In this document: in pieces, positions 4,058-25,124 of the stretch
Layout: each line of letters begins with the position of its first letter
Position numbering within the stretch: the stretch's first letter is position 1
Source: Ktedonobacterales bacterium
Lineage (GTDB): Bacteria > Chloroflexota > Ktedonobacteria > Ktedonobacterales > JADMIN01
Length of the DNA stretch: 32,000 bases
Reading direction: 5' to 3'
NCBI GenBank assembly: GCA_030167145.1
Contig: CP126532.1
Coordinates: 3,360,001-3,392,000 of the forward strand
Position numbers and translations under genes: made by a program
Notes under the pieces: model-generated
Database searches by the model: none
Told to the model about the DNA's origin: nothing
Seen by the model: the letters and a program-made list of their open reading frames with translations, nothing else

Positions 4058-4282
4058 TTATGCTTGTGTCTGCTGATCTTCCTCGTCGTCCGCAAACTCG
4101 TCACTGTGGATGAGGGCTTTGACCTCTTCCCACTCGCTCATTGAGCGGAGCGTATGCACGCCGCTCTCCTTGAAGACAGCACGCACGGTGTAGCCAAGTG
4201 GACCGTTACGTACCCCAGACTCCCAATCGGGATAGTTCGCGTTGATGATGCGGGCGAGGTCGTATGCTTCGTTTTCGCGCAC
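4058..4282 (-). CDS. Hypothetical small acidic protein (74 aa), last gene of the leftward arm
   Basis: GTG start at 4282 with AGGAG 8 nt upstream. It begins 19 nt after the TAA stop of the upstream ORF. The composition looks protein-like (MRENEAYDLARIINANYPDWESG...). No family recognised. Confidence 0.55.
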   Translation of the reverse strand: MRENEAYDLARIINANYPDWESGVRNGPLGYTVRAVFKESGVHTLRSMSEWEEVKALIHSDEFADDEEDQQTQA

Positions 4283-4301
4283 GGTGATGACTCCTGGGTA
4301 G

Positions 4302-5555
4302 TTAGGCTTCGGCTGCTGCTTCTTCCTGTTCTATTCCGCTGTGCTGTTCGGGCTGTGCCGCCAGGAGGTCTCTAAGGACGATGGCTTTGAGGTTGCTGGC
4401 GGTGGATTCGCTGATGCGTCGGCGGGTGGCGATGGCGAGTTGACGGGTGAGGTCACGCACGCTCATCTGTGGGTTGTCAAGGAGCAGGTCGCGGGCGATA
4501 CGCTCACGCTCGGTACGCAAGGTCTCGGCGTCGGCTTTGGTACGGCCAACAGAAGCCTTTGTTGTAGCTTTCGTGGTTGCTCGTGTAGCTGTGCGGGCAG
4601 GTGTGCGCACAGGTGACGTGCGAGCGGTGGGAAGGCGGAGTAACCCCCTGTTCGCACGCATGACCTCGGCGGCAGTGCTGGCCTGGGCTGGATGGGTCTG
4701 CACCCCCTGTGCGATTTCGGGGGTATTCGGCCCCTCAAAAGGCGGATAGGCTGGCTCGGTTTGTGGGTCGCGTTGTTGTGGGTTCGGTGGCGGTTCAGGC
4801 GCGGGTAAGGCGGGTTGTGCGAACATGTGTGCTGTGGGAGCCTGCGCTTGCGCTTGAATGGGAGCTTGAATGGGAGCTTGGGTGGGCGCCTGTATTGCGG
4901 CGTAGGCATGGCTGATGATGCGGCGGGTTTCGGGGTCGGGGACCAGTTCGACGAGTGCGCCGGTCATGTCGCGTCCGTCCTTTTCGGCTGCTCGCAGCAT
5001 CTTGCGGCGCTGCTTGCGCGCGATCTTGAAGACATCGGCGAGGGTCGCCCGCGCCTCGGCTTCGAGTTGCGCGGTGATGGGTTCGGCAAGCGGGGCGAGG
5101 AAGGCGGCGGCCATGAACGCGCCCGGGACGACGAGGGCGCGCACGACGTAGGCGAGCCAGCCAGGGAGGGCCAGCGCGGTGGTGGGTGGGGTCCAGGTGT
5201 CGTAGAGATAGTTGAGTTGGTTCCAGGCGGAGAAGGCGAGCAGGCCGGTGAGGATCGCCAGATTGACGCGCATGGCGCGGGTGGCGCGTTCGCGTTCGAT
5301 GCTGCCAGGAGTAGAGGCTTGCCCGTCCTGCCAGGCGACGCGCACACGACGCGCGCTGATGTAGCAGTGGGTCTCGACGGCGAAGGCGAGCGCCCAGGGT
5401 AGGATGCCGTTGAGCGTATCTTCGATGGCGGCGGGCAGGTGGCCTGCGCCGAAGTAGACGGCGACGGCGGTGATGCCTGCCAAGAGGTAGGCGATACGAA
5501 TAAGACCGGCGGCGGCTTCGTCGAGCCAGTCGAGGAAGCGGGTGAGGTTGCTCAC
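4302..5555 (-). CDS. Hypothetical multi-TM protein with a low-complexity linker and a C-terminal HTH-like segment (417 aa)
   Basis: GTG start at 5555 preceded by GGAGG (6-nt spacer). It overlaps the upstream stop (GTGA at 5552-5555). There are about four hydrophobic helices in the first 170 aa (LIRIAYLLAGITAVAVYFGAG, ILPWALAFAVETHCYI, VNLAILTGLLAFSAW, LVVPGAFMAAAFLAPL). A QAPTQAPIQAPIQAQAQAPT repeat is encoded by an imperfect 12-nt tandem repeat at ~4843-4896. The C-terminus is HTH-like (MSVRDLTRQLAIATRRRISESTASNLKAIV). The resemblance to DUF2637-type membrane proteins is from memory only. Confidence 0.7.
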   Translation of the reverse strand: MSNLTRFLDWLDEAAAGLIRIAYLLAGITAVAVYFGAGHLPAAIEDTLNGILPWALAFAVETHCYISARRVRVAWQDGQASTPGSIERERATRAMRVNLAILTGLLAFSAWNQLNYLYDTWTPPTTALALPGWLAYVVRALVVPGAFMAAAFLAPLAEPITAQLEAEARATLADVFKIARKQRRKMLRAAEKDGRDMTGALVELVPDPETRRIISHAYAAIQAPTQAPIQAPIQAQAQAPTAHMFAQPALPAPEPPPNPQQRDPQTEPAYPPFEGPNTPEIAQGVQTHPAQASTAAEVMRANRGLLRLPTARTSPVRTPARTATRATTKATTKASVGRTKADAETLRTERERIARDLLLDNPQMSVRDLTRQLAIATRRRISESTASNLKAIVLRDLLAAQPEQHSGIEQEEAAAEA

Positions 5556-5896
5556 TCTGCGCCTCCGTTCTCATCGGGGTTGTTCTGATGCGCTACAAGG
5601 GCTTGATAGGCGGGGACCCAGAGTTGCGGCAGGACAACAAACTCGGCGATGCGGTAGCGGTCGTGTTCCAGCCAGACGCACCACGTACCCAGGGTGCCGC
5701 CAGATTGGTAGCAGTACACGTCAAGGCCTGCGCTGGCGAGGGCGAGCAGGGTTGTGCGGGCGGGTCCGTCAGGTAGGAGCGAGCGAGGGACGGCTTCGAT
5801 GCTGGCAACGTTTTCGGAGATCTCGGAGATCTCGAATGCGGTTGCCGTGACGGTGGGCTGGTCGGTCGTTCGGTCGTTCGGTCGCTTGTTTCGCAC
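5552..5896 (-). CDS. Hypothetical protein (114 aa)
   Basis: GTG start at 5896 with GGAGG 12 nt upstream. Its stop overlaps the next start (GTGA). No recognisable motif. Confidence 0.55.
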   Translation of the reverse strand: MRNKRPNDRTTDQPTVTATAFEISEISENVASIEAVPRSLLPDGPARTTLLALASAGLDVYCYQSGGTLGTWCVWLEHDRYRIAEFVVLPQLWVPAYQALVAHQNNPDENGGAE

Positions 5897-6226
5897 GGTA
5901 GTTTTGCGCCTCCAATGGGGATAGTGGAGGGCAGCAAGAGGGGACGGAGGGGATACCCAAAGGGTAGACGCGCAGCGTATAGATAGGCTACGATGCGCGA
6001 TAGGTCCGGGCTTGCTACCACAAGTTTGGACTAGCCGGGGTCAGAGCGCCAACTCTGATTCCCGGCGACTACACACGACTATTCGATGACGGCAGTATAG
6101 CATAGCGGGCGGCGGCGGCGGATGGGCCGTGGGCCAGGTGGCCCGTTTGGCTTGTGTACGCATAGCCCGAACGGGTAGGGGTTCGCTGGCACGTCGGTTC
6201 GGCTCACCGTCAGCCTCGAACGCTCG

Positions 6227-6295
6227 CCCTCTTCGGAACCCCTCCTCGGAACGGCTCAGAGGGGCTTCGCGCTCAGAGGGGCCGCGCTGCGCTTG
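6227..6295 (+). repeat. Hairpin mini-element family C, copy 1: one copy apparently nested inside another
   Basis: The sequence reads ccctcttcggaac | ccctcctcggaacggctcagaggggcttcgc | gctcagaggggccgcgctgcgcttg. The outer halves together match the family consensus CCCTCYTCGGAACGRMTCRGAGGGG-CYGCGCT-N-CGCTTG. The inner 31 nt form a second copy. Confidence 0.6.
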
Positions 6296-6567
6296 CACGG
6301 GGTCTAGTGGGGGTGTGGGGGTGGAACCCCCACGACAGATCAACGGTGGTGAGGCAGGATGATTGCCGTTAGCCACAACGGCTCGCACGGGTGACCGGCG
6401 GCGGCTTGGCGTCCCAGTGGGGGCGAGCGCCACGGCAAGCGACCTAGCGCAGCCGCAGCGAGAGCCAAGCCGCCGCCGTTCTGTCCTGGGGGTGTGGGGG
6501 GCATCCCCCCACGTGCGTCCTATGCGCTTCGGCTCATCTTTAGTCGCTTCGGGTCGGGGGGCGTCAG

Positions 6568-6731
6568 CTCTGGGATTATCCTCTGTTTATCATCCAGTCC
6601 TTTCTACGGCGGTTCGCATCACCTTTAGTCGGTAGCCGTCGGACGCGGGAATGCCTCTGTTTATCATCTCTGGGATTATCCAATCCTTTCTACGGCGGTT
6701 CGCATCACCTTTAGTCGGTAGCCGTCGGACG
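6568..6731 (+). repeat. Tandem ~86-nt repeat (family B), two units
   Basis: Both units (6568-6645 and 6654-6731) end in the identical 45-mer tttctacggcggttcgcatcacctttagtcggtagccgtcggacg. The short modules ctctgggattatc and ctctgtttatcat precede it in swapped order in the two units. Related fragments occur at 7310-7330 and 13497-13519. Confidence 0.7.
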
Positions 6732-6744
6732 GGAGACAACGCTG

Positions 6745-6784
6745 CCCTCCTCGGAACGGACTCGGAGGGGCTGCGCTTCGCTTG
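6745..6784 (+). repeat. Hairpin mini-element family C, copy 2
   Basis: ccctcctcggaacggactcggaggggctgcgcttcgcttg. The stem is CCCTCC/GGAGGG around the loop tcggaacggactc. Confidence 0.6.
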
Positions 6785-6798
6785 CGCTGGTCGCTTCG

Positions 6799-6847
6799 TG
6801 TGCGCTCCGAGTTGGTGGGTTCAATGATAGCTGTTCTGTTATTCGTA
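6799..6847 (+). repeat. Family A core repeat, copy 1
   Basis: gtgcgctccgagttggtgggttcaatgatagctgttctgttattcgta. The core (A/G)T(A/G)GCYGTTCTGTTA recurs at 7125-7149, 7331-7371, 7527-7553, 13554-13594 and 13752-13778, always in the same orientation. Confidence 0.6.
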
Positions 6848-7124
6848 CTCCCCCACCGTGGCGGGCGATCATGGTGGCAATGCACGGTAGCGGTGGGAGG
6901 GGTTCTGCGGCGGGGCGCTGGGTGGCGGGGTCCCCCACTGGGGGCTTGTTGGTGATGGGGTGGGGGAAGCGCGCCGCGTGGGGTGGTTGGGTGGGGTCTG
7001 CGCGCGTGGCGGCGGAGTTGGGGTGGTGGGGTTGGGGGCCGCGACGCGCTCTGCGTTGGGGGTTCGGGGTGGTCTGCTCAACGCTGCGGTGGCCGCTCCG
7101 CGTGCCAGTTAGTTTTGCTGGTGC

Positions 7125-7220
7125 GATCATAGCTGTTCTGTTATTCGTACCCTTCGTACCCTTCGTACCCTTGGCGCGGCAACCCGAGTAGCCCAAGGGG
7201 CAATCGGGGCCGCGCCAAGC
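7125..7220 (+). repeat. Family A core copy 2, then a 9-nt tandem repeat and a variant of the family A hairpin
   Basis: gatcatagctgttctgttattcgta is followed by cccttcgta x3 (about 7146-7172). Next comes CTTGGCGCGGC-aacccgagtagcccaaggggcaatcgg-GCCGCGCCAAG, an 11-bp stem. The equivalent stem at 7374-7420 is CCGCGCGGC/GCCGCGCGG, so the changes are paired on both sides. Confidence 0.6.
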
Positions 7221-7255
7221 CGTAACCTAGAGGCGGGGGGGTTGGGGTGGGGGGT

Positions 7256-7303
7256 GTGGGGGGCGGGTGGGGGCAAACTTTACCCCCAACTCCCGCCCCC
7301 CAC
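7256..7303. repeat. Long G/C-tract hairpin
   Basis: GTGGGGGGCGGG-t-GGGGG-caaacttta-CCCCC-aact-CCCGCCCCCCAC gives 12 + 5 bp of pairing. It sits in G-runs (7234-7275). Smaller relatives are TGGGGGtggaaCCCCCA (~6317-6333) and TGGGGGGcatCCCCCCA (~6494-6510). Confidence 0.5.
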
Positions 7304-7330
7304 TTCTCCGCATGGCGGTTCGCTTGCCCT

Positions 7331-7567
7331 CCGAGTTGGTGGGTTCAATGATAGCTGTTCTGTTATTCGTAATCCCGCGCGGCAACCCGAGTTCTTGGAT
7401 GATAATCGGGGCCGCGCGGTCTGTGTGGCAGGATGCCGGTATGGCTTATACGCCGCCCGCGTAGGGCCGCGCAGCGCGTACCCTCAACGCTGTGGTGGCG
7501 GTACGGCTTCAATTGCGGTTTTGTGGGTTCAATAGTGGCTGTTCTGTTAGGGGTGGGTGGTCGGGGG
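7331..7567 (+). repeat. Long direct repeat, left copy (partner at 13554-13835)
   Basis: 7331-7447 matches 13554-13670 at 115 of 117 positions by my reading. After a short divergent spacer, 7466-7567 is homologous to 13696-13835. The only gap is a 39-nt insertion present in the right copy alone. Confidence 0.8.
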
Positions 7568-7660
7568 ACGGCGGGGTGTGGTGGGGGGTGTGGGGCCGGT
7601 GGGTGTGGGGGTTGGGGTGGTGGGGCGTCCATGCCCCGGTGGTTGCGCTATCGTGTTGCG

Positions 7661-8086
7661 CTACTTTGTTGCGGGCCGTGGTTCGGGCCGGTCGGGCAGG
7701 CAGTGGTAGCAGAGGAAGTTGGCGGGGAGGGGCATGGTGGGGAAGCGCCAGCGGCCATGCGTTTTGCAGACGTGTCGCCCGCAGCCGTCGCAGCGGTACT
7801 CGATGGGTTGGCCGCAGTCCGGCTCGGCGCAGCGGTCGTCCATTGGTTCGCAGGTGTCGGCTTCAGCTTCGTCGCCGTCGCCGTGGAGCCGTGCGCGCAT
7901 GGCGGTGCAAGCGGCGCGGACATGCTTAGCGGTGACCTGGGGCGTGTAGTGGTCGCGGGCGATCCGCTCGGCCTCGTAGGGCAGTTCGAGGCGGTCGGCT
8001 TCGGTGATGGCCGGATGGTGGAGGCAGGTGTCACGGCAGCGCATGACTTGGCGTTGGGCGTCAGAGGTGAAGATGAGGGTAAGCAT
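7661..8086 (-). CDS. Hypothetical Cys-rich (zinc-binding-like) protein (141 aa)
   Basis: ATG at 8086 with AGGAGAG upstream. The C-terminal half (CAEPDCGQPIEYRCDGCGRHVCKTHG...FLCYHC) suggests two zinc knuckles. No family recognised. Confidence 0.6.
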   Translation of the reverse strand: MLTLIFTSDAQRQVMRCRDTCLHHPAITEADRLELPYEAERIARDHYTPQVTAKHVRAACTAMRARLHGDGDEAEADTCEPMDDRCAEPDCGQPIEYRCDGCGRHVCKTHGRWRFPTMPLPANFLCYHCLPDRPEPRPATK

Positions 8087-8207
8087 GGTAGGTGTTCGCT
8101 CTCCTGTACGTAGGTTGGTCAGTTTGGTTTGGTTGGTTTGGGTGCGGGCCAGCTACGGGGGCCAGCCCGTCTGTTTGGTCGGTTGGTTATTCGGTTAGCC
8201 GGATGGG

Positions 8208-8603
8208 TTAGCGTTGGGTGATGGGGCGCAGATACCAGACGCTCCCAAGGAGGGCGATCTGGCGAATGCGCTCGGCGCAGTAGGCATCGGTGTAGGCGGA
8301 CTGTGCCGCCATGAAGCGGGCGAATGCGGCTTCTTTCTTGCGCCACATGGCGCGAATGGTTGCTGCGTCTTCGTAGGCGTCGGGTCGCATGATCGCGGCA
8401 AAGGCGTCGTGGAGTGGTCGCCAGATGGCGGCGGCGGCGCATGACTCCTGGTAGAGTTGGCGCACGGCGGGGGTGTTGCGGACGCGCTCCGCTACGGCTA
8501 GCTCGGCATCGGCGCTGAGGCGCGGCTGTCGTGCCGGTGGGTCGGTGGTGAAGGGCGTTGTTGCTCCAGTGGCGCGGCTTGTGCCTAGTGTGTTCGTTTG
8601 CAC
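8208..8603 (-). CDS. Hypothetical protein (131 aa)
   Basis: GTG start at 8603 preceded by GAGGAGCGTACCAACC. This leader is shared with the gene starting at 10756. The composition is helical and protein-like. Confidence 0.6.
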   Translation of the reverse strand: MQTNTLGTSRATGATTPFTTDPPARQPRLSADAELAVAERVRNTPAVRQLYQESCAAAAIWRPLHDAFAAIMRPDAYEDAATIRAMWRKKEAAFARFMAAQSAYTDAYCAERIRQIALLGSVWYLRPITQR

Positions 8604-8624
8604 GGTTGGTACGCTCCTCGTTCT

Positions 8625-8669
8625 GATGCGCCCTCCTCGGAACGGACTCGGAGGGACTGCGCTACGCTT
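8625..8669 (+). repeat. Hairpin mini-element family C, copy 3, interrupting a conserved leader cassette
   Basis: gatgcgccctcctcggaacggactcggagggactgcgctacgctt lies between two gttct pentamers (8620-8624 and 8670-8674). The uninterrupted homologous leader at 10757-10787 reads ...gctccgttctcggtggttc. Confidence 0.6.
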
Positions 8670-8684
8670 GTTCTCGGTGGTTTA

Positions 8685-8729
8685 GGTGAATGGCTGGCCG
8701 GTAGGTTACTCAGGCATGCTCCGGCCAGC
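8685..8729. promoter_or_regulatory. Intercistronic GC-rich hairpin (family F)
   Basis: The stem is GCTGGCCGG (8693-8701) / CCGGCCAGC (8721-8729) with a 19-nt loop. The 18-nt lead-in ggtgaatggctggccggt is identical to 9467-9484. It lies in the 8604-8766 gap of the leftward operon. Confidence 0.4.
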
Positions 8730-8766
8730 GGACGTGCTACAGGGTGGGACTACGGGGACGATCACG

Positions 8767-9285
8767 CTAGAAGGGGATGTCAGCGGACTCGGCGCGCTTG
8801 GCGGCTTGCTGCTCCATCCACGCGGGGTAGTCGTCTATGGCGTCGAGGAGGGCGCTGGTGAGGTCTTCGCCGGAGTAGTTGATGGGTATGGCTTCGTGGT
8901 AGCTGTTGGGGCCGTAGACGCGCCAGGGGCGATAGCCCTGGAAGTAGCGATAGGCCAGTATCCACGGTTCGCCATGCACGGTTATGGTGACGATAGCGCC
9001 GGTGTTGTCGTCGTCTTCGCGCTGCTCGTCGTAGTCCACTTCGGCGGCGAGGGCGTGCATCAGTTCGGCGCTGAAGTGGTCGCGTACCAGGGCGGCGAGG
9101 TTGTTCATCGCGTCTTCGCGCTCCTGGGCGATCTGGCGGGCGCGGTGGGCTTCGGCTTCGGCGCGCTCCTCGGCGCGGACGCTGCGGCGCGCGGCTAGCA
9201 GGTCATCGAGCGTGGGACTGTGCGTGGGCGCTCCGGTCGCCGTGGTGGTCGTGGTCGTCGTGTTGTTTGATACGTGGTTGCTCAT
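8767..9285 (-). CDS. Hypothetical protein (172 aa) ending in an SSB-like DIPF tip
   Basis: I chose ATG 9285 because it forms an ATGA overlap with the stop of the upstream 53-aa ORF. The ORF track's longer 9369 start would overlap that ORF. Features are an N-terminal Thr run (NNTTTTTTTATG), a charged helical segment, a globular C-terminal half, and a terminus ...AKRAESADIPF. Confidence 0.65.
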   Translation of the reverse strand: MSNHVSNNTTTTTTTATGAPTHSPTLDDLLAARRSVRAEERAEAEAHRARQIAQEREDAMNNLAALVRDHFSAELMHALAAEVDYDEQREDDDNTGAIVTITVHGEPWILAYRYFQGYRPWRVYGPNSYHEAIPINYSGEDLTSALLDAIDDYPAWMEQQAAKRAESADIPF

Positions 9286-9443
9286 GGGAGTTGGTTCGTG
9301 CCTTTCTTGCTTGCTCGTTTCCGGGCAATGGGTCGGACGATAAAAAGCCATATGTCTAGGGCGACGCATGCTAGTGCGAGCAATGCGAGGATGAGCCAGC
9401 CAATCGCGTCTGCGATGTCGAGGATGTTCAGTAGGGTGTGCAT
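9282..9443 (-). CDS. Small single-TM protein (53 aa)
   Basis: ATG at 9443 with GGAG 13 nt upstream. The sequence is MHTLLNILDIADAIGWLILALLALACVALDIWLFIVRPIARKRASKKGTNQLP, one hydrophobic helix plus a basic tail. It is translationally coupled to the next gene (ATGA). Confidence 0.45.
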   Translation of the reverse strand: MHTLLNILDIADAIGWLILALLALACVALDIWLFIVRPIARKRASKKGTNQLP

Positions 9444-9466
9444 GCTAGTCGGTTGGCTCCGTTTGT

Positions 9467-9506
9467 GGTGAATGGCTGGCCGGTCGGTCAACTCCGCGCG
9501 GCCAGC
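9467..9506. promoter_or_regulatory. Intercistronic GC-rich hairpin (family F)
   Basis: The stem is GCTGGCCG (9475-9482) / CGGCCAGC (9499-9506) with a 16-nt loop. The lead-in is the same as at 8685. It is followed by ggtacgcgctacaaggg, which recurs at ~10358-10375. Confidence 0.4.
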
Positions 9507-9569
9507 GGTGAACCTACGGGTACGATCAGGGGAAACCAAGGGTGAACCTACAGGTACGCGCTACAAGGG

Positions 9570-10265
9570 TTAAAAGGGGATGGCTTCACAGGCGACAGGG
9601 TCGGCGGTTTCGGCGGTTTCGGCAGTGGTTGCGGTATCCGGCGCAGTGGGGTCTTCGGGTACAAGCTGCTTGGCGAGGAAGGCCAGCAGGGCGCAGGCGA
9701 TGTGCTGCGGCACGCCGTCTATCGTCACTCGCACGGCGTCCGGGTAGGGGTAGGCGCCGTCGTGTCCTGGTTGCTGGTGAAACACAATGCGGGTGTGTGA
9801 ACGGGGATAGCTCGGATGGGGTACGCCATCGAGTACGGTTTCGCCGTTCAGGGTGGTATGGCTCGCCGTCAGTGGTCGGGCGGCGTCCAGCAGTTCTGCT
9901 AACATCTCGGCGCTACGCTGCTCGCGGGCGTCTTGCTCACGCTTGATGCGTGTGGCCTCGGCGAGCACCTGCCGGTACTCTGGCCAGATGCGGCGCTCGA
10001 TCTCGCGCACGATGACGGCGGCTCCGCGACTACTGGCAACAGTGATGGTGGGTATGGTCATCCCGTGGGGATGTGTCAGGCCATCGGGTAGCCATACGTC
10101 CACCTGTGTGCGTGTGCCGTTGTCGCTGATGCTGAGGCGCTGGCCGTCTGGCCCACGGAAGACGGTTTTCCATCCATAGTCTTTATCCTGTTGCCAGCCA
10201 GCGCCAAGCTGTGTAAGGAATAGGGCGGCGTTCTCGTCGCTCAGGGTTCCAGAAATGTAGCTCAT
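9570..10265 (-). CDS. Hypothetical protein (231 aa) with a disordered acidic tail ending in AIPF
   Basis: I chose ATG 10265 because GAGGAG lies 11 nt upstream. The track's 10346 start adds an unlikely extension. The body is globular, followed by the tail PEDPTAPDTATTAETAETADPVACEAIPF. Confidence 0.65.
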   Translation of the reverse strand: MSYISGTLSDENAALFLTQLGAGWQQDKDYGWKTVFRGPDGQRLSISDNGTRTQVDVWLPDGLTHPHGMTIPTITVASSRGAAVIVREIERRIWPEYRQVLAEATRIKREQDAREQRSAEMLAELLDAARPLTASHTTLNGETVLDGVPHPSYPRSHTRIVFHQQPGHDGAYPYPDAVRVTIDGVPQHIACALLAFLAKQLVPEDPTAPDTATTAETAETADPVACEAIPF

Positions 10266-10756: not shown

Positions 10757-10799
10757 GGTTGGTACGCTCCGTTCTCGGTGGTTCAGGTGGTCGGTTCGG

Positions 10800-18280: not shown

Positions 18281-18290
18281 CGGCTCAGCC

Positions 18291-18701: not shown

Positions 18702-18714
18702 GCGGAGCTTGCAA

Positions 18715-18987
18715 ATGTTCAGGCAGGCGGGGATAGATACGGCGGTGCTGGAAGAACTGCGGGCGATCCGCGCGGAGATCCACGAGCTGGCGGAGAAGGT
18801 GGGGCAGGCGGCGACGCGGGATGATCTGGCGGACTACGTGACACGCGAGGCGTTTGACGCGCATGTGAACCAGCACAAAGAGCGGGTGGCGGACTGGCGG
18901 TTCTGGCTGCCGTATGCGCTGACCGCGTTGATGTTTGTGCTGTATGTGATGCAAGACCTGGGTGTGCGGCTCGTAGCAGGCCGATAG
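18715..18987 (+). CDS. Hypothetical coiled-coil protein with a C-terminal TM anchor (90 aa)
   Basis: I preferred ATG 18715 (GGAG 7 nt upstream, just after the 18701 stop) over the track start at 18670. The sequence is MFRQAGIDTAVLEELRAIRAEIHELAEKVG...WRFWLPYALTALMFVLYVM. Confidence 0.5.
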   Translation: MFRQAGIDTAVLEELRAIRAEIHELAEKVGQAATRDDLADYVTREAFDAHVNQHKERVADWRFWLPYALTALMFVLYVMQDLGVRLVAGR

Positions 18988-19006
18988 GTAGGGAGGTGAG
19001 GCGAGA

Positions 19007-19933
19007 ATGGCGGCGACACTGGGACTCAGCGCCTACATAGATGTGCCGACCTATCTGCGTAGCCCTGTCAATCAGGAGACGGTGACGCTGCTGGGGCTGA
19101 ATACGACGCTCAGCGCGGGCAGCACGCCAGCGGGTACAACGGCGCTGGGTGTGGTCTCGTCTACCGGCTGGGCGGTGGGTACGGCGTGGCTGCTGGATGG
19201 TCCGTACTCGGAGATCGTCACGATTACGGGGAGCGCAGACGGCACGCATGTGACGCTGGCGGCGCCTGGAACACAGTTCGCGCATGGGTTGGGCGCGAGC
19301 ATCTCGCAGGCGGGGACGGCGGGCAGCCTCGCGGAGACGCTGCTGCGGGCCAGCGCGTGGGTGGAGAACTACTGCCAGCAGGGGACGGGCGGCGGGGATA
19401 GGTCGCTGTATGCTGTGGCGCGGACGGAGCGATGGGGTATGCCGTCTACACGCGCGTACATTGACCGTGACAACGTGGTGGCGGTGATGCCTGGGCACTT
19501 CCCGGTGCAGAGTGTCAGCGCGCTCTCCATCGAGTTTGGGCAGGGGCAGAGCCTGAGCCTGGATGTGTCGCAGCTCGAGGAGATGACGGTGGGGCGGATG
19601 GTGGAAGTGCCGTATCTGCTGGCGGGTGGTCCGACGGTGGGGCAACAACTGTTCCTCGACACGGTGGGTCTCTCGCGGACCAGAAGGCAATGGGCGGTGC
19701 TGAGCTACGTGGGCGGCATTACACCCGGCAGCATCCCCTACGATGTGCAGCAGGCGGCGGCGCTGATCGCCTCGGAGGTATTGGGGCAGCGCAGGAATCC
19801 GACGGGGGCAGCGGAGTACAAGCTCGGCAAACTGGACGTGGTGCAGCGGCAACGCGGGGATGCCGTCGGCGATAGCATCCTGCTGCTGCGCGCCAGGGAT
19901 TTGTTGCAACCGTACCGCAGCGAGGTGTGGTGA
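19007..19933 (+). CDS. Putative head-tail connector / head-completion protein with an N-terminal extension (308 aa)
   Basis: ATG at 19007 follows GGGAGGTGAGG. The central segment LAETLLRASAWVENYCQQ resembles gp6-type head-tail connector proteins. The position after the capsid gene fits. The assignment is motif-level only. Confidence 0.55.
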   Translation: MAATLGLSAYIDVPTYLRSPVNQETVTLLGLNTTLSAGSTPAGTTALGVVSSTGWAVGTAWLLDGPYSEIVTITGSADGTHVTLAAPGTQFAHGLGASISQAGTAGSLAETLLRASAWVENYCQQGTGGGDRSLYAVARTERWGMPSTRAYIDRDNVVAVMPGHFPVQSVSALSIEFGQGQSLSLDVSQLEEMTVGRMVEVPYLLAGGPTVGQQLFLDTVGLSRTRRQWAVLSYVGGITPGSIPYDVQQAAALIASEVLGQRRNPTGAAEYKLGKLDVVQRQRGDAVGDSILLLRARDLLQPYRSEVW

Positions 19934-19991
19934 TGGGCGCACGCCACGCCAGGAGGGCGCACACCATGCGCCCCTACTTTCCATAAAGTTC

Positions 19992-20028
19992 GGTATTTCG
20001 GATGTGCTTTGAGTACACGAGAAATACC
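19992..20028 (+). promoter_or_regulatory. Hairpin in a lower-GC gap inside the head operon
   Basis: The stem is GGTATTTC (19992-19999) / GAAATACC (20021-20028) with a 21-nt loop. It is followed by GGGAGG and a 5-codon mini-ORF (ATG 20049, MWPGL stop). The 19934-20114 gap is the only sizeable intergenic gap in the operon. Confidence 0.3.
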
Positions 20029-20114
20029 AAAGTGGGAGGTAAAGCCGTATGTGGCCTGGGCTGTGATAGATTTTGTGATTTTTCGCGCGTGACATGCAAA
20101 CAGAGGCGGCGGCG

Positions 20115-20219
20115 ATGTTCATTGGCGTGCTGGCAATCCTTGCCGCTGTCGTGCTGGCTGTGGCTCCCATCGTTGCGGTGATGGTGATAGGCAGGAACGG
20201 TGATACGTCATGCTACTGA
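20115..20219 (+). CDS. Possible 34-aa hydrophobic micro-protein (below the ORF-track threshold)
   Basis: The ORF encodes MFIGVLAILAAVVLAVAPIVAVMVIGRNGDTSCY, a single predicted TM helix. Its stop (20217-20219) overlaps the ATG of the next gene (20210). The RBS is weak (agagg). Confidence 0.25.
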   Translation: MFIGVLAILAAVVLAVAPIVAVMVIGRNGDTSCY

Positions 20220-20521
20220 CGACGGTACGGCTGGAACGGCCGGAGGGGACGGTGCTGCTGCGGGGCATCTCGGTGCAGATTGAGCAGGCGACGGAACTGG
20301 CGCTCAACGATTTGGAGGGGGCGCGGAGCTACGATAGGTTCTGGCTCTACACACTGCAAGGCGTGCCGACCACGGCGATAGCGCGGCGGGATGTGCTGTT
20401 CGATGAGGTGAATGTGGACGCGGAGACGGGAACGCTGGCGAAATACAGGGTGAGCGGACTGGTGGAGACGTTTGCGGGCGATCATCAAGAGGCGCTGGTC
20501 GAACGGGTAGTGGGGAACTGA
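20210..20521 (+). CDS. Putative head-tail adaptor / head-closure protein (103 aa)
   Basis: Its size, its position, and a C-terminal pattern (KYRVSGLVETFAGDHQEALVERV) recall head-tail joining proteins. No stronger evidence. Confidence 0.5.
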   Translation: MLLTTVRLERPEGTVLLRGISVQIEQATELALNDLEGARSYDRFWLYTLQGVPTTAIARRDVLFDEVNVDAETGTLAKYRVSGLVETFAGDHQEALVERVVGN

Positions 20522-20528
20522 GGCGGAT

Positions 20529-22076
20529 ATGAGCAGGCGAGAGCGGCGCAAGCACAACCGAAAAGCTGGCAGCATTCCGGCGGGGGCGTCGCTGCGTCCG
20601 ATCACAAACCTACCCCCTAGCCCCCTCCCTACAAGGGAAGGGGGAAGGCCTGCCACGCCGCTCGCGGGCGCTTTCTCGGCCAACGGAGGGGCGACGAACC
20701 TGAGCGGTGGGAGCCAGATGCCGCCAGGGGAGCCGCTGCTGCCCAATGTGGGGGTGGTGCCGTCAGATGGTGGGCCGCGCCAGTTTGCGTACCCTGTCGG
20801 CTACAACATCGCGCAGCGGCCACGCGCCACCGAACAGACATCCTTCGAATCGCTCAGGAATCTGGCGTCGCTGTATGATGGTGTGCAGATCTGCGAACGG
20901 GTGTACTTCGATTTGCTGGGCAGGCTGGAACTGCGGGTGGCTCCGCGCGCGGACCTGCTGGCGGATGGCGAGGATGCGCGTGCGCCGAGGTGGCGCAATC
21001 CAGCGGCGGCGATTGAGGGCTTTCTGGAATGCCCCGACCGCGCGCAAGACCTAAGAAGCTGGCTGGTGGCGTTCGTCCGCGACATCCTCGAAGTGGACGC
21101 GATAGGTATCTATCGTAGGCGGGACCGCGCGGGCAGGCTCTACGCGCTGGAGCTCGTTGCTGGTGACACCTTGAAGCCCTTGATCGAGCAGCATGGCAGA
21201 ACGCCGCAGCCGCCGCAACCGGCGTACCAGCAATTCGTGTATGGCGTTCCGGCGGGGTGGTACACGACGGATGAGATAGATTATCTCAGAGAGACGGCGC
21301 GGACCGAAAGCGTGTATGGGTTGAGCCGGGTGGAACGGATCATCCTGCGGGTGAATCAGGCGCTCCGCAAGCAGGACTTCGATATGGCGCGGTTCACTGA
21401 TGGCAGCACGCCGCTGGGACTGATCGCGCCGCCCGCTGACCTGGCCTGGACACCGGAACAACTCAGAACGTTCGAGCAGACATTCAACGGGTTGCTGGCG
21501 GGCAACGACCAGATGCGCGTGCGGGCCAAGGCGCTACCCCCTGGCGCGACGTGGCAGAGCTTACTTGGCGATGACCCGCTGATCGCGTTTGACCGCTTCC
21601 TGCTGAACGTGACGGTGGCGGCGTTCGGTCTGACGATGGATGAGCTAGGCTTCACGGAGACGAGCAACCGCAGCACGGGACTGACGCAAGAGGGGGTGGT
21701 GTACCGGCGAGCGGTGGCTCCGGTGGCGGGGCTGGTGGCGGGCTATCTGACGCGCATCGTCCGGCGGGAGATAGACCCACGGTTCACGGTGAGCTTTGGG
21801 GGATTCGAGGAGCCAGAGGATTTCGCGGCGCGGGCCGAAGCGTTCGCGCGGCTGATACCGACGGGCGCCATCTCGCCGAGCGATGCGGCCAGAGCCTTGC
21901 ACTTGCCGGTGGCACACGAGACGCCCGCGTACATCCTGACGCGGATGGGTCCGGTGCTGGTGGATGACCTTATCACGGGCAAAGTGAAAGTGAATCCGGC
22001 GGCGGCGGCGGGCAGTGCTTCAGTGGGTGAGCCTGTGCCGGATGAGGAAGACGCGGCAGTGGGGAATGACCAGTAG
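20529..22076 (+). CDS. Portal protein (515 aa)
   Basis: ATG at 20529 with GAGG 5 nt upstream. Portal-family style segments are FESLRNLASLYDGVQICERVYFDLLGRLELRV, ILEVDAIGIYRRRDRAGRLYALELV, VYGLSRVERIILRVNQALRKQDFDMARFTDGSTPLGLI and NDQMRVRAKALPPGA. It lies adjacent to the terminase genes. Confidence 0.85.
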   Translation: MSRRERRKHNRKAGSIPAGASLRPITNLPPSPLPTREGGRPATPLAGAFSANGGATNLSGGSQMPPGEPLLPNVGVVPSDGGPRQFAYPVGYNIAQRPRATEQTSFESLRNLASLYDGVQICERVYFDLLGRLELRVAPRADLLADGEDARAPRWRNPAAAIEGFLECPDRAQDLRSWLVAFVRDILEVDAIGIYRRRDRAGRLYALELVAGDTLKPLIEQHGRTPQPPQPAYQQFVYGVPAGWYTTDEIDYLRETARTESVYGLSRVERIILRVNQALRKQDFDMARFTDGSTPLGLIAPPADLAWTPEQLRTFEQTFNGLLAGNDQMRVRAKALPPGATWQSLLGDDPLIAFDRFLLNVTVAAFGLTMDELGFTETSNRSTGLTQEGVVYRRAVAPVAGLVAGYLTRIVRREIDPRFTVSFGGFEEPEDFAARAEAFARLIPTGAISPSDAARALHLPVAHETPAYILTRMGPVLVDDLITGKVKVNPAAAAGSASVGEPVPDEEDAAVGNDQ

Positions 22077-22101
22077 GGCAAGCAAGGACGGCGGCACCGA
22101 C

Positions 22102-22761
22102 ATGGCAAACATGACAGACAAGGCGAAGCAGCTACAGCCCGCAGAAGAAACAAGCATACAGCAGAATGCGGCCACGGAGGATCTGCGGGCGCGGGTGTGG
22201 GAACTGCATTTGCGGGGGGCGACGAAGCGGGCGATTGCGGAGGTGGTGGGGGTTCACCGGCAGACAGTGGGGCGCTGGTTGGCGGCGGGATATGCGGAAC
22301 TGGAGGCGGACCGCAAGGCGCGGCAGAAGCGGCTATTGGCGGCGGCGGTGGCGCGCATGCGGCGGGTGCAGGAGCAGGCATGGGATGATCATGATGCGGA
22401 TGATGCGCGTGAGCAAGCGGTGTTAGATGCGGCCCTCTTCGGAACGGCTCAGAGGGGCCGCTCTGCGGCGCTCAGTGCGGCGGCAACGTCAGAGGGGAAC
22501 GATGAGAGAGGCGGCGGCGGTGTTCAGGGGATACGCTTGCAGTCGCAGCGGGCGCAATACCTGCGGGTGGTGCTGGACGCGGAGAAGGAGATTGCGCGGC
22601 TAGAGGGGCTGTACGAGGCGACAGGCGACGAGGGCGCGGCGGTATCGTTCGTGGTCCTTCGTGATGATGGGAGCCGTCTGACGGCCAGCGTGGGGCTGCT
22701 GAGGGGTAAAAGCAGGGCCGCGGCTGCGGTGTCAGAGTCAGAGGCGGCGGAAGATGAGTAG
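22102..22761 (+). CDS. Putative terminase small subunit / HTH DNA-binding protein (about 219 aa; start uncertain)
   Basis: Candidate starts are 22066, 22102 and 22111; the track start 22015 overlaps the portal gene. It has an HTH (GATKRAIAEVVGVHRQTVGRWL) followed by a coiled coil. Its stop overlaps the TerL start by 8 nt. It contains a family C element in frame. Confidence 0.6.
   Translation: MANMTDKAKQLQPAEETSIQQNAATEDLRARVWELHLRGATKRAIAEVVGVHRQTVGRWLAAGYAELEADRKARQKRLLAAAVARMRRVQEQAWDDHDADDAREQAVLDAALFGTAQRGRSAALSAAATSEGNDERGGGGVQGIRLQSQRAQYLRVVLDAEKEIARLEGLYEATGDEGAAVSFVVLRDDGSRLTASVGLLRGKSRAAAAVSESEAAEDE
22433..22473 (+). repeat. Hairpin mini-element family C, copy 6, inside the TerS-like CDS
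   Basis: ccctcttcggaacggctcagaggggccgctctgcggcgctc encodes ALFGTAQRGRSAA. This is a different reading frame from copy 5. Confidence 0.6.
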
Positions 22762-24097
22762 CCGTAGCACAGGTGTACGCGCCAAACGCAGAGCGCATGA
22801 GACGCTGAATCGGAGGCGGGAACTGCTGCTGAATCCCAAGCAGTACGACTTCGTGTTTTCGGAGGCGCGGTTCAGCTTCTACGTGGGTGGCATCGGCGCG
22901 GGCAAGACGTATGCGGGCGCGCTGCGGGCGCTGTTCGCGGGTCAGCAGCTGCCGGGGTCGCTGGGGCTGGTGGGCGCCCCCACGTATCCGATGCTCAGAG
23001 ACGCCACGCAGCGGACGTTCTTCGCGCTCTGCCCCGACGCGCTGATTCGCTCGTGGAACAAGACCGAGCAGCATCTGGTGTTCACCAACGGCAGTGAGAT
23101 ATTGTTCAGGAGTATGGACCAGCCGGATAGGGTGCGCGGGCTGAATCTGGCGTGGGCGTGGCTGGATGAGGCGCCGCTGTGTGGCTACTACGGCTGGCAA
23201 GTGCTGAAGGGCAGACTGCGGCAAGCGGGGTATCCAGCGCGAGCGTGGGCGACGGGGACGCCGCAGGGCCGGGATGGCTACGCGCGGGACTTTGAGTTGG
23301 AGCCACGCGACGGGCATGCGCTGTATCGGGCGAGCACCAGAGAGAATGCGTGCAACCTGCCGCCGGGGTTCATCGAGGACTTGGGCTATACGGGTCAGTT
23401 CGCGGCGCAGGAAATTGAAGGCCAGTTCGTGGCGTTCGAGGGGCTGGTGTACAGCTTCGATGCTGACGCCGTGGACGGGAATGTTCGGAGTTGGGCAGGC
23501 GGGGAGTTCCGTAGCGTGGTCGGTGGCATAGATTGGGGCTACACGAATCCAGCGGCGGCGGTGGTGTTTGGGCTGGATGGCGACGGGCGGGCGTGGCAGA
23601 CTGACGAGTTCTATCAGCGACGGGCAGGGCTGGAAGAGACGGTGCTGCCGGCGATAGTGGCGCTGACACGGCGGTATGGCGTGGTGCGCTGGTATGCGGA
23701 CTCGGAAGACCCGGAGGCGATAGACCGCTTGAACGCGGCGCTGGCACGGGAAGGATTGCAGACACGGGCGCGGGCGGCGGTGAAGGGCGCTGGCTCGGTG
23801 CGGGCGGGGATACAGACGGTGACGGGGCTGCTCTCGAAGCGCGGGGATGGGACGCGGGGGCTGTACGTTGACCCGCGGTGCGTGGCGACGATTGCGGAAT
23901 ATGGGACGTATGCGTATGCGACGGTGGACCGGGCGAAGCGGGATGCGTCGGAGGAGCCGCTGAAGCAGAGCGACCATGCGCTCGACGCGAGCCGGTATGC
24001 GCTGCATGGGGAGCTGGCGGGTGCGGCGAAGACGGAGGCGTACTTGGCGTCCATGCGGGGCAGATTGGAACACGAAAGCGTCTCGGTGGAACACTAA
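22754..24097 (+). CDS. terL: Terminase large subunit (447 aa)
   Basis: Walker A is YVGGIGAGKTYAG and Walker B-like is LAWAWLDEA. Nuclease-domain acidic motifs are GGIDWGYTNPAA, WYADSEDPEAIDRL and SDHALDASRYAL. The start overlaps the upstream gene. Confidence 0.92.
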   Translation: MSSRSTGVRAKRRAHETLNRRRELLLNPKQYDFVFSEARFSFYVGGIGAGKTYAGALRALFAGQQLPGSLGLVGAPTYPMLRDATQRTFFALCPDALIRSWNKTEQHLVFTNGSEILFRSMDQPDRVRGLNLAWAWLDEAPLCGYYGWQVLKGRLRQAGYPARAWATGTPQGRDGYARDFELEPRDGHALYRASTRENACNLPPGFIEDLGYTGQFAAQEIEGQFVAFEGLVYSFDADAVDGNVRSWAGGEFRSVVGGIDWGYTNPAAAVVFGLDGDGRAWQTDEFYQRRAGLEETVLPAIVALTRRYGVVRWYADSEDPEAIDRLNAALAREGLQTRARAAVKGAGSVRAGIQTVTGLLSKRGDGTRGLYVDPRCVATIAEYGTYAYATVDRAKRDASEEPLKQSDHALDASRYALHGELAGAAKTEAYLASMRGRLEHESVSVEH

Positions 24098-24136
24098 GAC
24101 GCTGATTTGGAACAGGGAACAGGTGAGGTGGAACAG

Positions 24137-25072
24137 ATGGGGAACCCGATGATCGTGAACGTGCCGATTGTGAATCAGCGGACGCAGACGGGGGCGGATG
24201 GGCGGCCGCCGGAAGACGGGAACATGGACTGCGTGCCCGCCAGCTTGAGCGCGATGGTGGCGGCGCTGATCGGGCAGCCGCAGAATGCCGACGGCTGGCA
24301 CGATGCGGTGTATGGGCAGGGGTACGTGGGGATGCAAGACCCGGCGAAGTACGTCGTGCATGCTCTCGGCCTGGGCGTGCATTTGTTCGCGTTCAACGGC
24401 ACAGCGCAGAACCTCGTGGCGGTGGCGGTGGAGGCGATACGCGCGGGGCATCCGGCGCTGCTCAGCATTCCGAGCGATTGGCTGGATGAGCCGCCGCACA
24501 GTCAGTACGCGCATATGGTGGCGGGCTGCGACGTGTCGGCGGATGGGCAGCAGTTGACATGCATGAATCCGTGGACGGCGGCGTATGAGACGCATACGCT
24601 GGCGTGGTGGGAAGAGCGGCTGAACTGCTGCTCGTACAAGACGGTGTGGGTATTGGAGAAGGTGGAGGGTAGTCAGGTGGACAACTGGACCGATGTGAGT
24701 GATGCGAGCGGTGCGGCGGCGCGTGATCAGCATGGGAACGAACTGCGGTTTGGGCAGGCGGCGTATGTGCTGGCGAACAAGAGCACGGCGAATGCGGTTG
24801 AGGGGGTAGCGGCGCAGGCGTATCCGTTCGGACCGGACTACTCCATCACCGCGCTGGAAGATGGCACGGCGTTGATCTACGGCAAGCAATCGAATGTGGT
24901 GAGCCATGTCGGCGGGGACGCGGGCGCGGTGATCAGCGGGCTGTATCTGGCGTTGGTGAAGCTACAAGAGGCAGATCCGGGTACGACGCCGCCACCGGCG
25001 GAACCCCCGGAAGATGCGGCGGCGTTGGCTGCGGTGCGGGCGCTGGCGGCTGCGTTGGCGCAGGTGGGGTGA
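24137..25072 (+). CDS. Putative cysteine peptidase (C39-like / papain fold), possible lysin (311 aa)
   Basis: I preferred ATG 24137 (GGTGAGGTGGA upstream) over the TTG at 24107. The motifs are VNVPIVNQRTQTG...NMDCVPASLSAMVAALIG (Cys motif) and YAHMVAGCDV...LTCMNPW (His motif). It is the last gene of the rightward operon. Confidence 0.6.
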   Translation: MGNPMIVNVPIVNQRTQTGADGRPPEDGNMDCVPASLSAMVAALIGQPQNADGWHDAVYGQGYVGMQDPAKYVVHALGLGVHLFAFNGTAQNLVAVAVEAIRAGHPALLSIPSDWLDEPPHSQYAHMVAGCDVSADGQQLTCMNPWTAAYETHTLAWWEERLNCCSYKTVWVLEKVEGSQVDNWTDVSDASGAAARDQHGNELRFGQAAYVLANKSTANAVEGVAAQAYPFGPDYSITALEDGTALIYGKQSNVVSHVGGDAGAVISGLYLALVKLQEADPGTTPPPAEPPEDAAALAAVRALAAALAQVG

Positions 25073-25082
25073 GGGGAAGGGG

Positions 25083-25124
25083 GTGCGCCCCGGCTGGCTA
25101 CGGTGAATGATGGCAGGGGCGCAC
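25083..25124. terminator. Hairpin between convergent genes (possible bidirectional terminator)
   Basis: The stem is GTGCGCCCC (25083-25091) / GGGGCGCAC (25116-25124) with a 24-nt loop. There is no clear T-tract. Confidence 0.35.

Follow-up and report, generated by a model that had tools for sequence, protein, structure and literature searches.

What is a block of phage head and DNA-packaging genes doing in the genome of a soil bacterium when no tail genes can be recognised beside it? The question is raised by the 32,000-nucleotide stretch of DNA analysed here (the window), which lies on the 5.07 Mb contig of the genome of a member of the order Ktedonobacterales. Members of this little-studied host group grow as mycelia and form spores. 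An initial annotation of the window had described one packed plus-strand head and packaging block at 14153–25072, and this description holds: ten consecutive ORFs, all on the plus strand with small gaps or overlaps, form a single block there, and profile and structure matches agree. The window has all ten genes in intact form; its features are as follows.

4058–12188, minus strand: leftward arm of about 10 small genes; no Pfam or PHROG matches; conserved in part alongside the cluster in other genomes
4302–5555, minus strand: membrane and HTH protein, part of the leftward arm
10800–12188, minus strand: SWIM-type zinc-finger protein (ORF extends to 12962), always the first gene divergent from the protease gene
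12189–14152, no strand: non-coding, repeat-rich region of about 2 kb that separates the divergent arms; promoter-like sites point in both directions
13786–13822, no strand: REP-like hairpin repeat, genome-specific; further copies at 6237–6274, 6743–6780, 8629–8666, 18614–18651 and 22430–22467
14153–16558, plus strand: fusion of a prohead serine protease (N-terminal ~200 aa) with a long C-terminal part that is variable and scaffold-like; phrog_9427 E 3e-32, PF04586 weak
16659–18194, plus strand: major capsid protein, SU10-type HK97 fold; PF17236 SU10_MCP E 7e-8, phrog_13692 E 3.5e-56
18291–18701, plus strand: small protein; no Pfam or PHROG match; almost confined to compact (type A) clusters, plus L017
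18670–18987, plus strand: small protein (18715–18987 in the source's gene call); no Pfam or PHROG match; specific to compact clusters
19007–19933, plus strand: predicted head-to-tail adaptor (portal-binding type) with an extra N-terminal beta domain; predicted structure, phrog_442 weak
20210–20521, plus strand: 103-aa stopper-sized protein, always directly after the adaptor, in compact and dispersed loci
20529–22076, plus strand: portal (start at 20718 in the source's gene call); PF04860 E 1e-10, phrog_2662 E 1e-40
22015–22761, plus strand: TerS-like HTH protein in the TerS position; PF13384 HTH_23 E 3e-7, weak TerS PHROG matches
22754–24097, plus strand: TerL (ATPase and nuclease); PF03237, PF17289, phrog_2 E 1e-42
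24107–25072, plus strand: C39-like (papain-fold) cysteine peptidase with a C-terminal extension; PF13529 matched by 22 of 60 homologues

Across loci, the protease-scaffold protein is conserved at its N-terminus and over its last ~90 amino acids and varies in its middle segment, which is His-rich in the window; His94 and Ser140 of the protease are conserved in at least 90% of 34 homologues. The capsid protein, which starts at 16704 in the source's gene call, passes the curated cut-off of PF17236 (32.8 bits versus 24.1) and has 193 relatives, mostly 75–86% identical; dN/dS for the capsid is 0.07–0.21. Homologues of the first small protein occupy the same position in the related loci L006, L012, L017, L038, L042 and L057, and those of the second are found in L012, L038, L042 and L057.

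An AlphaFold2 model of the 19007–19933 product (120-sequence alignment; pLDDT 86, pTM 0.83) has as its top Foldseek matches the adaptor chains of the T5, DT57C, RcGTA, phage 812 and Milano necks, with E values from 3e-6 to 5e-4. The protein also aligns with the one at the adaptor position of phage THSA-485A (hhalign probability 95.9%), and its predicted structure shows it to be a head-to-tail adaptor. The 103-aa protein, for which dN/dS is about 0.2 and a single-sequence model reached pLDDT 44, is by size and position a candidate head-closure (stopper) protein. The portal has 270 metagenomic relatives. The TerS-like gene lies directly 5′ of TerL in all compact loci, and its linker carries in frame, at 22430–22467, a host repeat element absent from L012, L038 and L057. 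TerL has a Walker A motif, GGIGAGKT, at residue 45, and its acidic residues are invariant in the alignment. The peptidase is found 3′ of TerL in the window, L012, L038 and L060; Cys42 and His136 are invariant in a 60-sequence alignment, and Gln24, Cys42 and His115 are conserved in a 4-sequence alignment of local copies. It is possibly a lysis or processing enzyme.

Like encapsulins, the block could be a case in which the host has domesticated and retained HK97-fold shell genes, and stand-alone protease and capsid pairs in its relatives resemble a shell-plus-partner operon. Unlike encapsulins, the window cluster has a portal, a terminase and an adaptor, and shows no evidence of cargo targeting; it is therefore predicted to specify a DNA-packaging head rather than a closed protein compartment. 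An encapsulin was ruled out on the portal, TerS and TerL.

The block ends, as the initial annotation had stated, at a convergent non-phage gene, a pentapeptide-repeat gene at 25138–27282. Searched against Pfam and PHROG, the called ORFs at 4058–13945 matched none of the tail, baseplate, fibre, integrase or replication families, and the called ORFs of the block, with small membrane ORFs present, matched no tail family. The earlier statements that no tail genes, integrase or replicase are recognisable in 4–25 kb are thus borne out, where the absence of tail genes is that given by profile searches and one structure prediction, with small ORFs without matches remaining. No tRNA or Rfam matches were found, and no direct repeats of at least 13 nt are shared by the two boundary regions. 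A complete tailed prophage (Caudoviricetes) was rejected, since tail, lysis and integration or replication genes were not found contiguous with the head module, while canonical relatives elsewhere have them.

The gene order is protease-scaffold, capsid, two small ORFs, adaptor, 103-aa protein, portal, TerS-like protein, TerL and peptidase. It had been called atypical, and comparison upholds this: distant metagenomic relatives have the order portal-MuF-protease-MCP, and the nearest isolated phage, the Thermoanaerobacterium siphovirus THSA-485A with its SU10-type capsid, has the order TerS-TerL-portal-661 aa-MCP-adaptor-tape measure. The phage and the window have homologous capsids (about 30% identity), in each case with a gene of protease-scaffold size 5′ of the capsid gene and a homologous adaptor two small genes 3′ of it. 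However, it has TerS-TerL-portal upstream and continues into the tape measure, tail genes, a primase-helicase and regulators, whereas the window has portal-TerS-TerL 3′ of the neck genes and no tail.

The same tail-less order is repeated in at least seven other contigs (L012, L038, L042, L057, L099, L115 and, in part, L006), and is therefore not a recent truncation, the origin that had been suggested as one option. Across the copies, all cluster genes have dN/dS values of 0.2–0.3 at dS values of 0.8–1.4 (saturating), and a tail module beyond TerL or the peptidase occurs at none of the five junctions with sequence there. Inactivating mutations in orthologues gave a divided result. The genes are intact in L012 and L057 as in the window, and the fragments L099 and L115 are also intact; in two long-read MAGs the compact cluster is frame-disrupted (three of six genes in L038, six of six in L042). 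Because the other loci of both MAGs are intact, the compact cluster can be taken as dispensable and as decaying in some lineages. These disruptions, together with the incomplete second copy and isolated fragments found in this genome, the IS elements near L057 and L060, and the lack of detected tail, lysis cassette, integrase and replication genes, are what a defective prophage remnant would leave, with no present function and a head module surviving by chance or weak selection. We regard such a remnant as quite improbable given the intact copies, the conserved catalytic residues and the low dN/dS maintained across saturating divergence. In addition, the boundary is common to independent genomes, and random deletion therefore does not fit.

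In four genomes the cluster is accompanied by a left arm of orphan genes, a pattern that a mobile element would show. Similarity links the SWIM protein to L038 5320–6012, L042 5132–6205 and L012 3–269, and the protein family at 8767–9369 to L038 2744–3631 and L042 2967–3719; the 4302 protein resembles L038 647–2153 by eye (membrane N-terminus, C-terminal HTH-like motif) and gave no BLAST match. No recombinase family, AlpA/MerR/Stl-type regulator or primase-replicase was detected in this arm, whose orphan proteins could hide analogues. The arm is missing from L057, where the module lies directly between host genes. Between the arms, a promoter-like TTGACA-18-TAGATT is found at 13948–13977 on the plus strand and a minus-strand site at 12245–12217, along with 13-nt and 18-nt tandem repeats and three 64-nt repeats. 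The REP-like repeat, present six times within the element, is restricted to loci of the same genome (the window, L060 and L061) and occurs in 0 of about 90 loci from other genomes; the copy in frame within TerS is common to a second copy of that gene.

This layout bears on the main rival to the reading favoured below, a capsid-forming satellite resembling the cf-PICIs, as had been proposed at the outset: an integrated, helper-induced element whose own small heads would be filled with its own DNA and fitted with tails taken from a co-resident long-tailed phage. The cf-PICIs release tail-less DNA-filled heads which take tails later. Their packaging gene set (capsid, protease, portal, adaptor, connector-sized protein, TerS and TerL) is matched here, the connector-sized protein by size and position, with no tail found; the adaptor is of the long-tailed-phage type, and such tails join finished heads. 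The two-arm layout is conserved at differing genomic sites, a second TerS-TerL-peptidase copy adjoins an IS605 TnpB gene, canonical prophages with a 65% identical TerL in related hosts are possible helpers, and the decay in some genomes would also be consistent with a satellite. The proposal stood in its gene content, but the marks of mobility were not detected: unlike cf-PICIs, the window has no recognised integrase, AlpA-type regulator, primase-replicase or attachment repeats (flanking direct repeats of at least 13 nt), no near-identical copies across hosts (none above 86% identity outside this genome) and unrelated sequence families. Invasion of the element by host REP elements, the module of L057 standing between host genes without the left arm, and signs of vertical descent, namely an adaptor and stopper that co-diverge with a syntenic host locus, likewise count against a satellite, which we consider rather unlikely.

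Outside the cluster, ordinary host genes of this genome and of others are interspersed with relatives of its genes: protease and capsid pairs, adaptor-stopper-c4 trios and lone portals, often in synteny; a lone TerL is a single case, found only in the window's genome. Whereas the flanks of the compact cluster vary between genomes, the dispersed loci are syntenic. The dN/dS values of the pairs, trios and lone portals, 0.07–0.3, are similar to those of neighbouring housekeeping genes: capsid genes in syntenic loci range from 0.07 to 0.16, against 0.15–0.21 for the flanking housekeeping genes, and lone portals have a median of 0.23. No shared upstream motif linking the dispersed modules was found. 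The best matches outside the genome, among 5.8 billion proteins, are 86% identical for the capsid, 76% for TerL and 72% for the adaptor; of 2.9 million viral contigs, a single one contains the adaptor family and three contain the capsid family. Since the relatives are conserved across the whole order, they point to a long-kept particle-making system, not a broken virus.

In three genomes, identities in the compact cluster are 67/65/78% for the adaptor and 66/67/86% for the stopper, versus 62/60/78% and 65/64/86% in the syntenic paralogous locus. This equal divergence, a congruence test of three genomes, suggests that the compact cluster is inherited vertically. The capsid gene departs from the congruence, which may be due to gene conversion, the window capsid being 88% identical to a paralogue in the same genome.

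The dispersed loci also raise a further alternative, in which the block belongs to a complete virus and the tail or attachment proteins either have diverged beyond recognition or are encoded at a separate locus, for example a short-tailed particle of the adaptor, the 103-aa protein, c4, a ~490-aa protein and an 870–1162-aa LamG-domain structural protein. L021 and L045 have, on one strand, genes for the adaptor and the 103-aa protein and then for c4, a LamG-type protein (985 and 870 aa, respectively) and the ~490-aa protein; the LamG protein matches virion structural PHROGs. At 2.87 Mb, the window's own genome encodes c4 and a 1162-aa LamG protein, and 5′ of the second TerS-TerL copy it has a ~490-aa homologue that is split. 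None of the c4, ~490-aa and LamG proteins has a tail-family match at a significant level, however, and the window encodes none of them; in most syntenic loci c4 is followed by a nuclease-family gene instead of the LamG gene. The adaptor fold is nearest to that of long-tailed phages, and replication and integration genes were not found. A complete virus is, in our estimation, improbable.

With moderate confidence, and from sequence comparisons, we favour the reading that the window carries an intact, Ktedonobacterales-specific, phage-derived head and DNA-packaging cassette that is long resident, vertically inherited and never accompanied by tail genes, resembling a gene transfer agent (GTA), with heads completed in trans or working without a tail. 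The tailless particle producer of the initial annotation is accordingly the option retained, widened to an order-wide conserved, partly dispersed family under purifying selection. The cassette is best read as closer in kind to a GTA, a domesticated particle producer, than to a mobile satellite. Like the GTA of Rhodobacter capsulatus (RcGTA) and other Alphaproteobacteria, it is a structural and packaging cluster of phage origin in the chromosome, has no recognised genes for integration or replication, and shows vertical inheritance, purifying selection and more loci elsewhere in the genome (here from a small sample), as well as loss or decay in some lineages; its predicted adaptor fold matches the RcGTA neck adaptor (6toa, 6te8). 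In contrast, RcGTA clusters encode a full tail, of which none was found in the window or related clusters. The system of the window also differs in gene order, in its paralogous dispersed copies of several genes and in its phylum (Chloroflexota). The differing flanks, the travelling left arm, the decay in two MAGs, the capsid off congruence and the failure to find an upstream motif common to the dispersed modules speak against a domesticated cassette, and a tail or delivery device was not identified anywhere with confidence.

If the cassette is functional, a putative promoter 5′ of 14153 would drive the block, the protease-scaffold and capsid proteins would build a procapsid on the portal, and TerS and TerL would load it with DNA. 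The adaptor and 103-aa protein would then close the portal, and the peptidase may aid release or processing. The product would be a tail-less DNA-filled head that either acts without a tail or acquires tail or attachment parts encoded elsewhere. Candidate sources of such parts are the adaptor-stopper-c4-LamG locus, at a distance of 500 kb on this genome, and resident prophages whose terminases are related.

It is possible, although we put this forward only tentatively, that the Ktedonobacterales keep a tail-less head and packaging gene set, compact or scattered among housekeeping genes, by vertical descent and purifying selection, and that tail-less DNA-filled capsids serve the host, for example in DNA exchange or storage in mycelia or spores. 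Such particles would form a new class distinct from GTAs and satellites. To our knowledge, the well-studied domesticated DNA-packaging particles, the GTAs, all have tails, and the known tail-less head producers, the cf-PICIs, are all mobile satellites of Proteobacteria and Firmicutes. A predicted DNA-packaging system that is tail-less, apparently vertical (by the three-genome test) and scattered yet conserved would bring virus domestication to the Chloroflexota, and raises the question of how a tail-less head delivers or uses its DNA. The ten window genes, with the adaptor-stopper-c4 and LamG loci, offer a concrete gene set, and the conserved dispersed single genes, such as lone portals and protease-capsid pairs, would be a natural experiment on the survival of phage modules after domestication.

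Both the listed ORFs and the gene calls of the source place ten successive genes, all on the plus strand, at window positions 14153-25072. The G+C content is 62–70% from about 4 kb onward and about 50% in the first 4 kb of the window. Five of the ten genes (protease, capsid, portal, the HTH protein at the TerS position and TerL) were named by profile searches, and the functions given here for the cluster genes are all predicted from sequence.

Assigned genes of the head-and-packaging block (14153-25072)
14153-16558, plus strand: head maturation protease, forming the N-terminal part of an 801-aa protein (profile search)
Within the block, plus strand: major capsid protein, SU10-type (profile search)
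19007-19933, plus strand: adaptor, 308 aa (predicted structure and profile comparison)
20210-20521, plus strand: 103-aa protein, candidate stopper by size and position
Within the block, plus strand: portal (profile search)
Within the block, plus strand: HTH protein at the TerS position (profile search)
Within the block, plus strand: large terminase, TerL (profile search)
Last gene of the block, plus strand: papain-like peptidase (residues and homologue family matches)

The protease contains the His94/Ser140 pair and the terminase a Walker A motif. In the peptidase, Cys42 and His136 are invariant across a 60-sequence alignment, and 22 of the 60 homologues match Peptidase_C39_2. The model of the 308-aa adaptor, from a 120-sequence alignment, has a pLDDT of 86, and its best structural matches are the neck adaptor chains of T5, DT57C, RcGTA, phage 812 and Milano; profile comparison also ties it to the adaptor-position protein of siphovirus THSA-485A. 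The single-sequence model of the stopper has a pLDDT of 44, too low to be of use. The middle region of the protease-scaffold protein is very unlike between homologues, and a His-rich stretch within it (HSHHHTGRYDD...HTHEHVMDHQHGGHEGFPNGHTHPHVHVPEHSH, 15200-15500) could possibly bind metal. One TerL homologue, P0187 (617 aa), matches the Hint-domain families PF07591 and PF13403, which suggests that this terminase harbours an intein. An encapsulin-like reading was rejected for the window because a portal and a terminase are present, and a simple circular permutation of the canonical phage order because the portal precedes TerS.

The called leftward-arm ORFs (4058-13285, minus strand) and the flanking ORFs gave no match to tail, integrase or replication families. 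No match was returned by tRNA and Rfam scans of the window, and no direct repeats of 13 nt or more were found between the element boundaries. These results, with the adaptor structure, therefore confirm the initial annotation's observation of a head-and-packaging module without a tail, the absence of a tail being judged by profile searches plus one confident structure. The family profiles of the adaptor, the stopper and c4 (a family that follows these two in dispersed loci) had no match among PDB sequences, and that of the peptidase no meaningful one; hhalign comparison of the stopper and c4 families with two THSA-485A neck-position proteins was negative, as was a tblastn search of 50,697 phage genomes with the adaptor.

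The window's capsid protein has an identical match encoded on a 5.07 Mb contig of a Ktedonobacterales MAG. The capsid search returned 193 relatives, most of them 75–86% identical, and nearly all those listed with a source name are from Ktedonobacterales. In a scan of species-representative genomes, 48 loci were found. Their labels are Ktedonobacterales, Ktedonobacteria, Chloroflexia or Chloroflexota in almost every case; the label Proteobacteria on two of them is probably a result of mis-binning. The capsid family occurs in only three of 2.9 million viral contigs and the adaptor family in only one. The nearest isolated phages have capsid proteins of 23–30% identity, and siphoviruses make up at least two of these: THSA-485A, with a tape measure gene, and, by name, the Brevundimonas vB_BpoS phages. 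In the literature library searched, no relevant work turned up on Ktedonobacteria capsids or prophages, on gene transfer agents (GTAs) of Chloroflexi or on tail-less domesticated systems of HK97 type, and none on a system like this one in Ktedonobacteria or Chloroflexota.

Gene arrangements were established by placing the proteins of the window on every locus retrieved and by clustering all ORFs. The compact order (protease, capsid, two small genes, adaptor, 103-aa gene, portal, TerS, TerL and usually the peptidase) is also found in the related loci L012, L038, L042 and L057, with fragments in L006, L099 and L115. Sequence past TerL or the peptidase is free of any tail module in the window, in L038, L042 and L057, and in L060, a partial copy in the window's own genome. 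Because the same boundary recurs in related clusters at deep divergence, the recently truncated prophage that the initial annotation had offered as one explanation is excluded.

Other relatives are dispersed. Protease and capsid pairs stand alone amid host genes; at least two syntenic settings are seen, one beside an acyl-CoA synthetase and the other beside a DEAD-box helicase. Adaptor-stopper-c4 trios are either solitary or downstream of such a pair. In syntenic loci of this dispersed kind, an endonuclease/exonuclease/phosphatase gene regularly follows c4 (PF03372, E 6e-24; for example L028 14355-15392), and a YggT-family membrane protein is encoded between the capsid and adaptor genes. Close portal relatives are mostly single genes between ordinary host genes, in syntenic groups; lone intact portals among housekeeping genes are seen in L100, L105, L128 and other metagenome loci. 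Single intact portal or TerL genes in such surroundings are an unusual pattern for phage genes. No motif common to the upstream regions of protease genes and lone portals was found by 8-mer enrichment, a crude test. Distant relatives (30–50% identity) show the canonical phage order of portal, MuF-like protein, protease, capsid and adaptor, and related hosts have canonical prophages with replication genes and a TerL of 65% identity.

The leftward arm is composed of orphans. For three of them, protein comparison found weakly similar proteins that occupy the matching position in other compact clusters.

Leftward-arm proteins with weak counterparts in other compact clusters
Leftward arm, minus strand: SWIM-type zinc-finger protein; its gene always comes first on the side divergent from the protease gene
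8767-9369, minus strand: protein family
Leftward arm, minus strand: membrane and HTH protein

Between the arms lies a 2-kb non-coding, repeat-rich region with promoter-like sites facing both ways. L057 has no leftward arm; an IS200/IS605 pair and host genes abut its head module. The window flanks showed no significant conservation with related loci in tblastx. At 80-3631 (minus strand), a gene of about 50% G+C, next to sequence of 62–65%, encodes a protein of 1183 aa in which WD40 repeats and a Roc/Ras-like GTPase domain are combined with a TIR domain at the C-terminus; directly abutting the element, it resembles an NLR-like or anti-phage protein gained by horizontal transfer. A 714-aa pentapeptide-repeat protein (25138-27282, minus strand) is convergent with the cluster end. 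Pentapeptide-repeat genes also lie near portals in two metagenomic loci (L112 351-1238 and L117 2458-3069); as such genes abound in these genomes, the proximity may be due to chance. Positions 29777-31399 encode a protein of the methyl-accepting chemotaxis type that has a TIR-like domain at its N-terminus, and a homologous TIR-domain protein (L094 4168-5619) lies about 4 kb upstream of a stand-alone adaptor-stopper-c4 trio in another genome.

Pairwise dN/dS for the capsid was 0.16 and 0.07 in two syntenic groups and 0.21 in compact clusters; values for other genes were 0.2–0.45, with lone portals at about 0.23, compared with 0.21 and 0.15 for two flanking housekeeping genes. Synonymous divergence in these pairs was 0.4–1.4. 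Congruence was assessed in three genomes that combine a compact cluster with a dispersed adaptor-stopper-c4 locus; in two of them the dispersed locus is syntenic. Adaptor identities were 67/65/78% among compact copies and 62/60/78% among syntenic copies, and stopper identities 66/67/86% and 65/64/86%; the two paralogous sets have therefore diverged in parallel in these three genomes, which is the prediction of vertical descent and is unexpected for an element that moves freely. The capsid gene departs from this pattern: the window capsid is most similar (87–88%) to the paralogue within its own genome, and gene conversion may have occurred. Homologue searches found no copy of a cluster gene above 86% identity outside the window's genome.

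A REP-like hairpin with the core CCCTCCTCGGAACGGCTCGGAGGGG has six copies within the element.

Copies of the REP-like hairpin
6237-6274
6743-6780
8629-8666
13786-13822
18614-18651
22430-22467

The hairpin is found only in loci of the window's genome, including tandem copies upstream of a lone intact TerL amid host genes (L061, 3.53 Mb). One hairpin is an in-frame insertion in the linker of TerS, present in both in-genome TerS copies. The presence of such genome-specific repeats inside the element argues for long residence. Arrays of longer repeats (62–141 nt) occupy 6589-7650 and 13495-13940, and a 123-nt pair, 98% identical (7325-7447 and 13548-13670), brackets most of the left arm; these may be MITE-like elements or recombination substrates.

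A satellite, also suggested by the initial annotation, offers a good functional analogy in the cf-PICIs, which are known to release tail-less, DNA-filled heads. The integrase, regulator and primase-replicase that define a cf-PICI were looked for and not detected in the window element, however, and the adaptor/stopper congruence in three genomes leaves mobility as a satellite unsupported.

Further pieces are present in the same genome. L060 (324–346 kb, at about 0.33 Mb) contains a second TerS-TerL-C39 peptidase copy with 82–87% DNA identity to window 22041-24981, adjoining an IS605 TnpB and a giant Tc-toxin-like gene. Upstream of this copy is a frame-split homologue of a ~490-aa protein that is encoded among neck genes in L045 and after a LamG gene in L021. 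L092 (2.861–2.882 Mb) contains a second protease and capsid pair (capsid 87.6% identical), followed after about 6 kb of host-like genes by YggT-like, adaptor (63%), stopper (71%) and c4 genes and, beyond c4, by genes that encode a secreted protein, a beta-propeller protein and a LamG-domain protein of 1162 aa with matches to virion-structural PHROGs. LamG homologues are encoded directly after c4 in L021 and a short way downstream of it in L045; in L040 the LamG gene follows that of the capsid. Against PHROG, nothing significant was found for c4, the ~490-aa protein or a 541-aa protein, and the LamG proteins matched only virion-structural or unknown families, through the LamG domain, and no tail family. 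The L092 proteins are candidates for parts supplied in trans, and the LamG proteins and their homologues are the only ones in the loci covered that could be attachment or tail-like parts, with no significant tail-family match.

The reading that fits best is a particle system of GTA-like kind, domesticated or at any rate immobilised, since the cluster resembles a GTA in being chromosomal, without integration or replication genes, under purifying selection, apparently vertically inherited and accompanied by extra loci elsewhere. Against this reading, the compact cluster is found at different sites in different genomes, and an arm of orphan genes travels with it. It is also frame-disrupted in two long-read MAGs (three of six and six of six genes, which may partly be sequencing errors) whose other loci are intact, so the compact cluster appears dispensable in some lineages. 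For the delivery of DNA, tail-less heads might be completed in trans, with parts from the c4/LamG locus or with tails of prophages, or they might serve a function that needs no tail.
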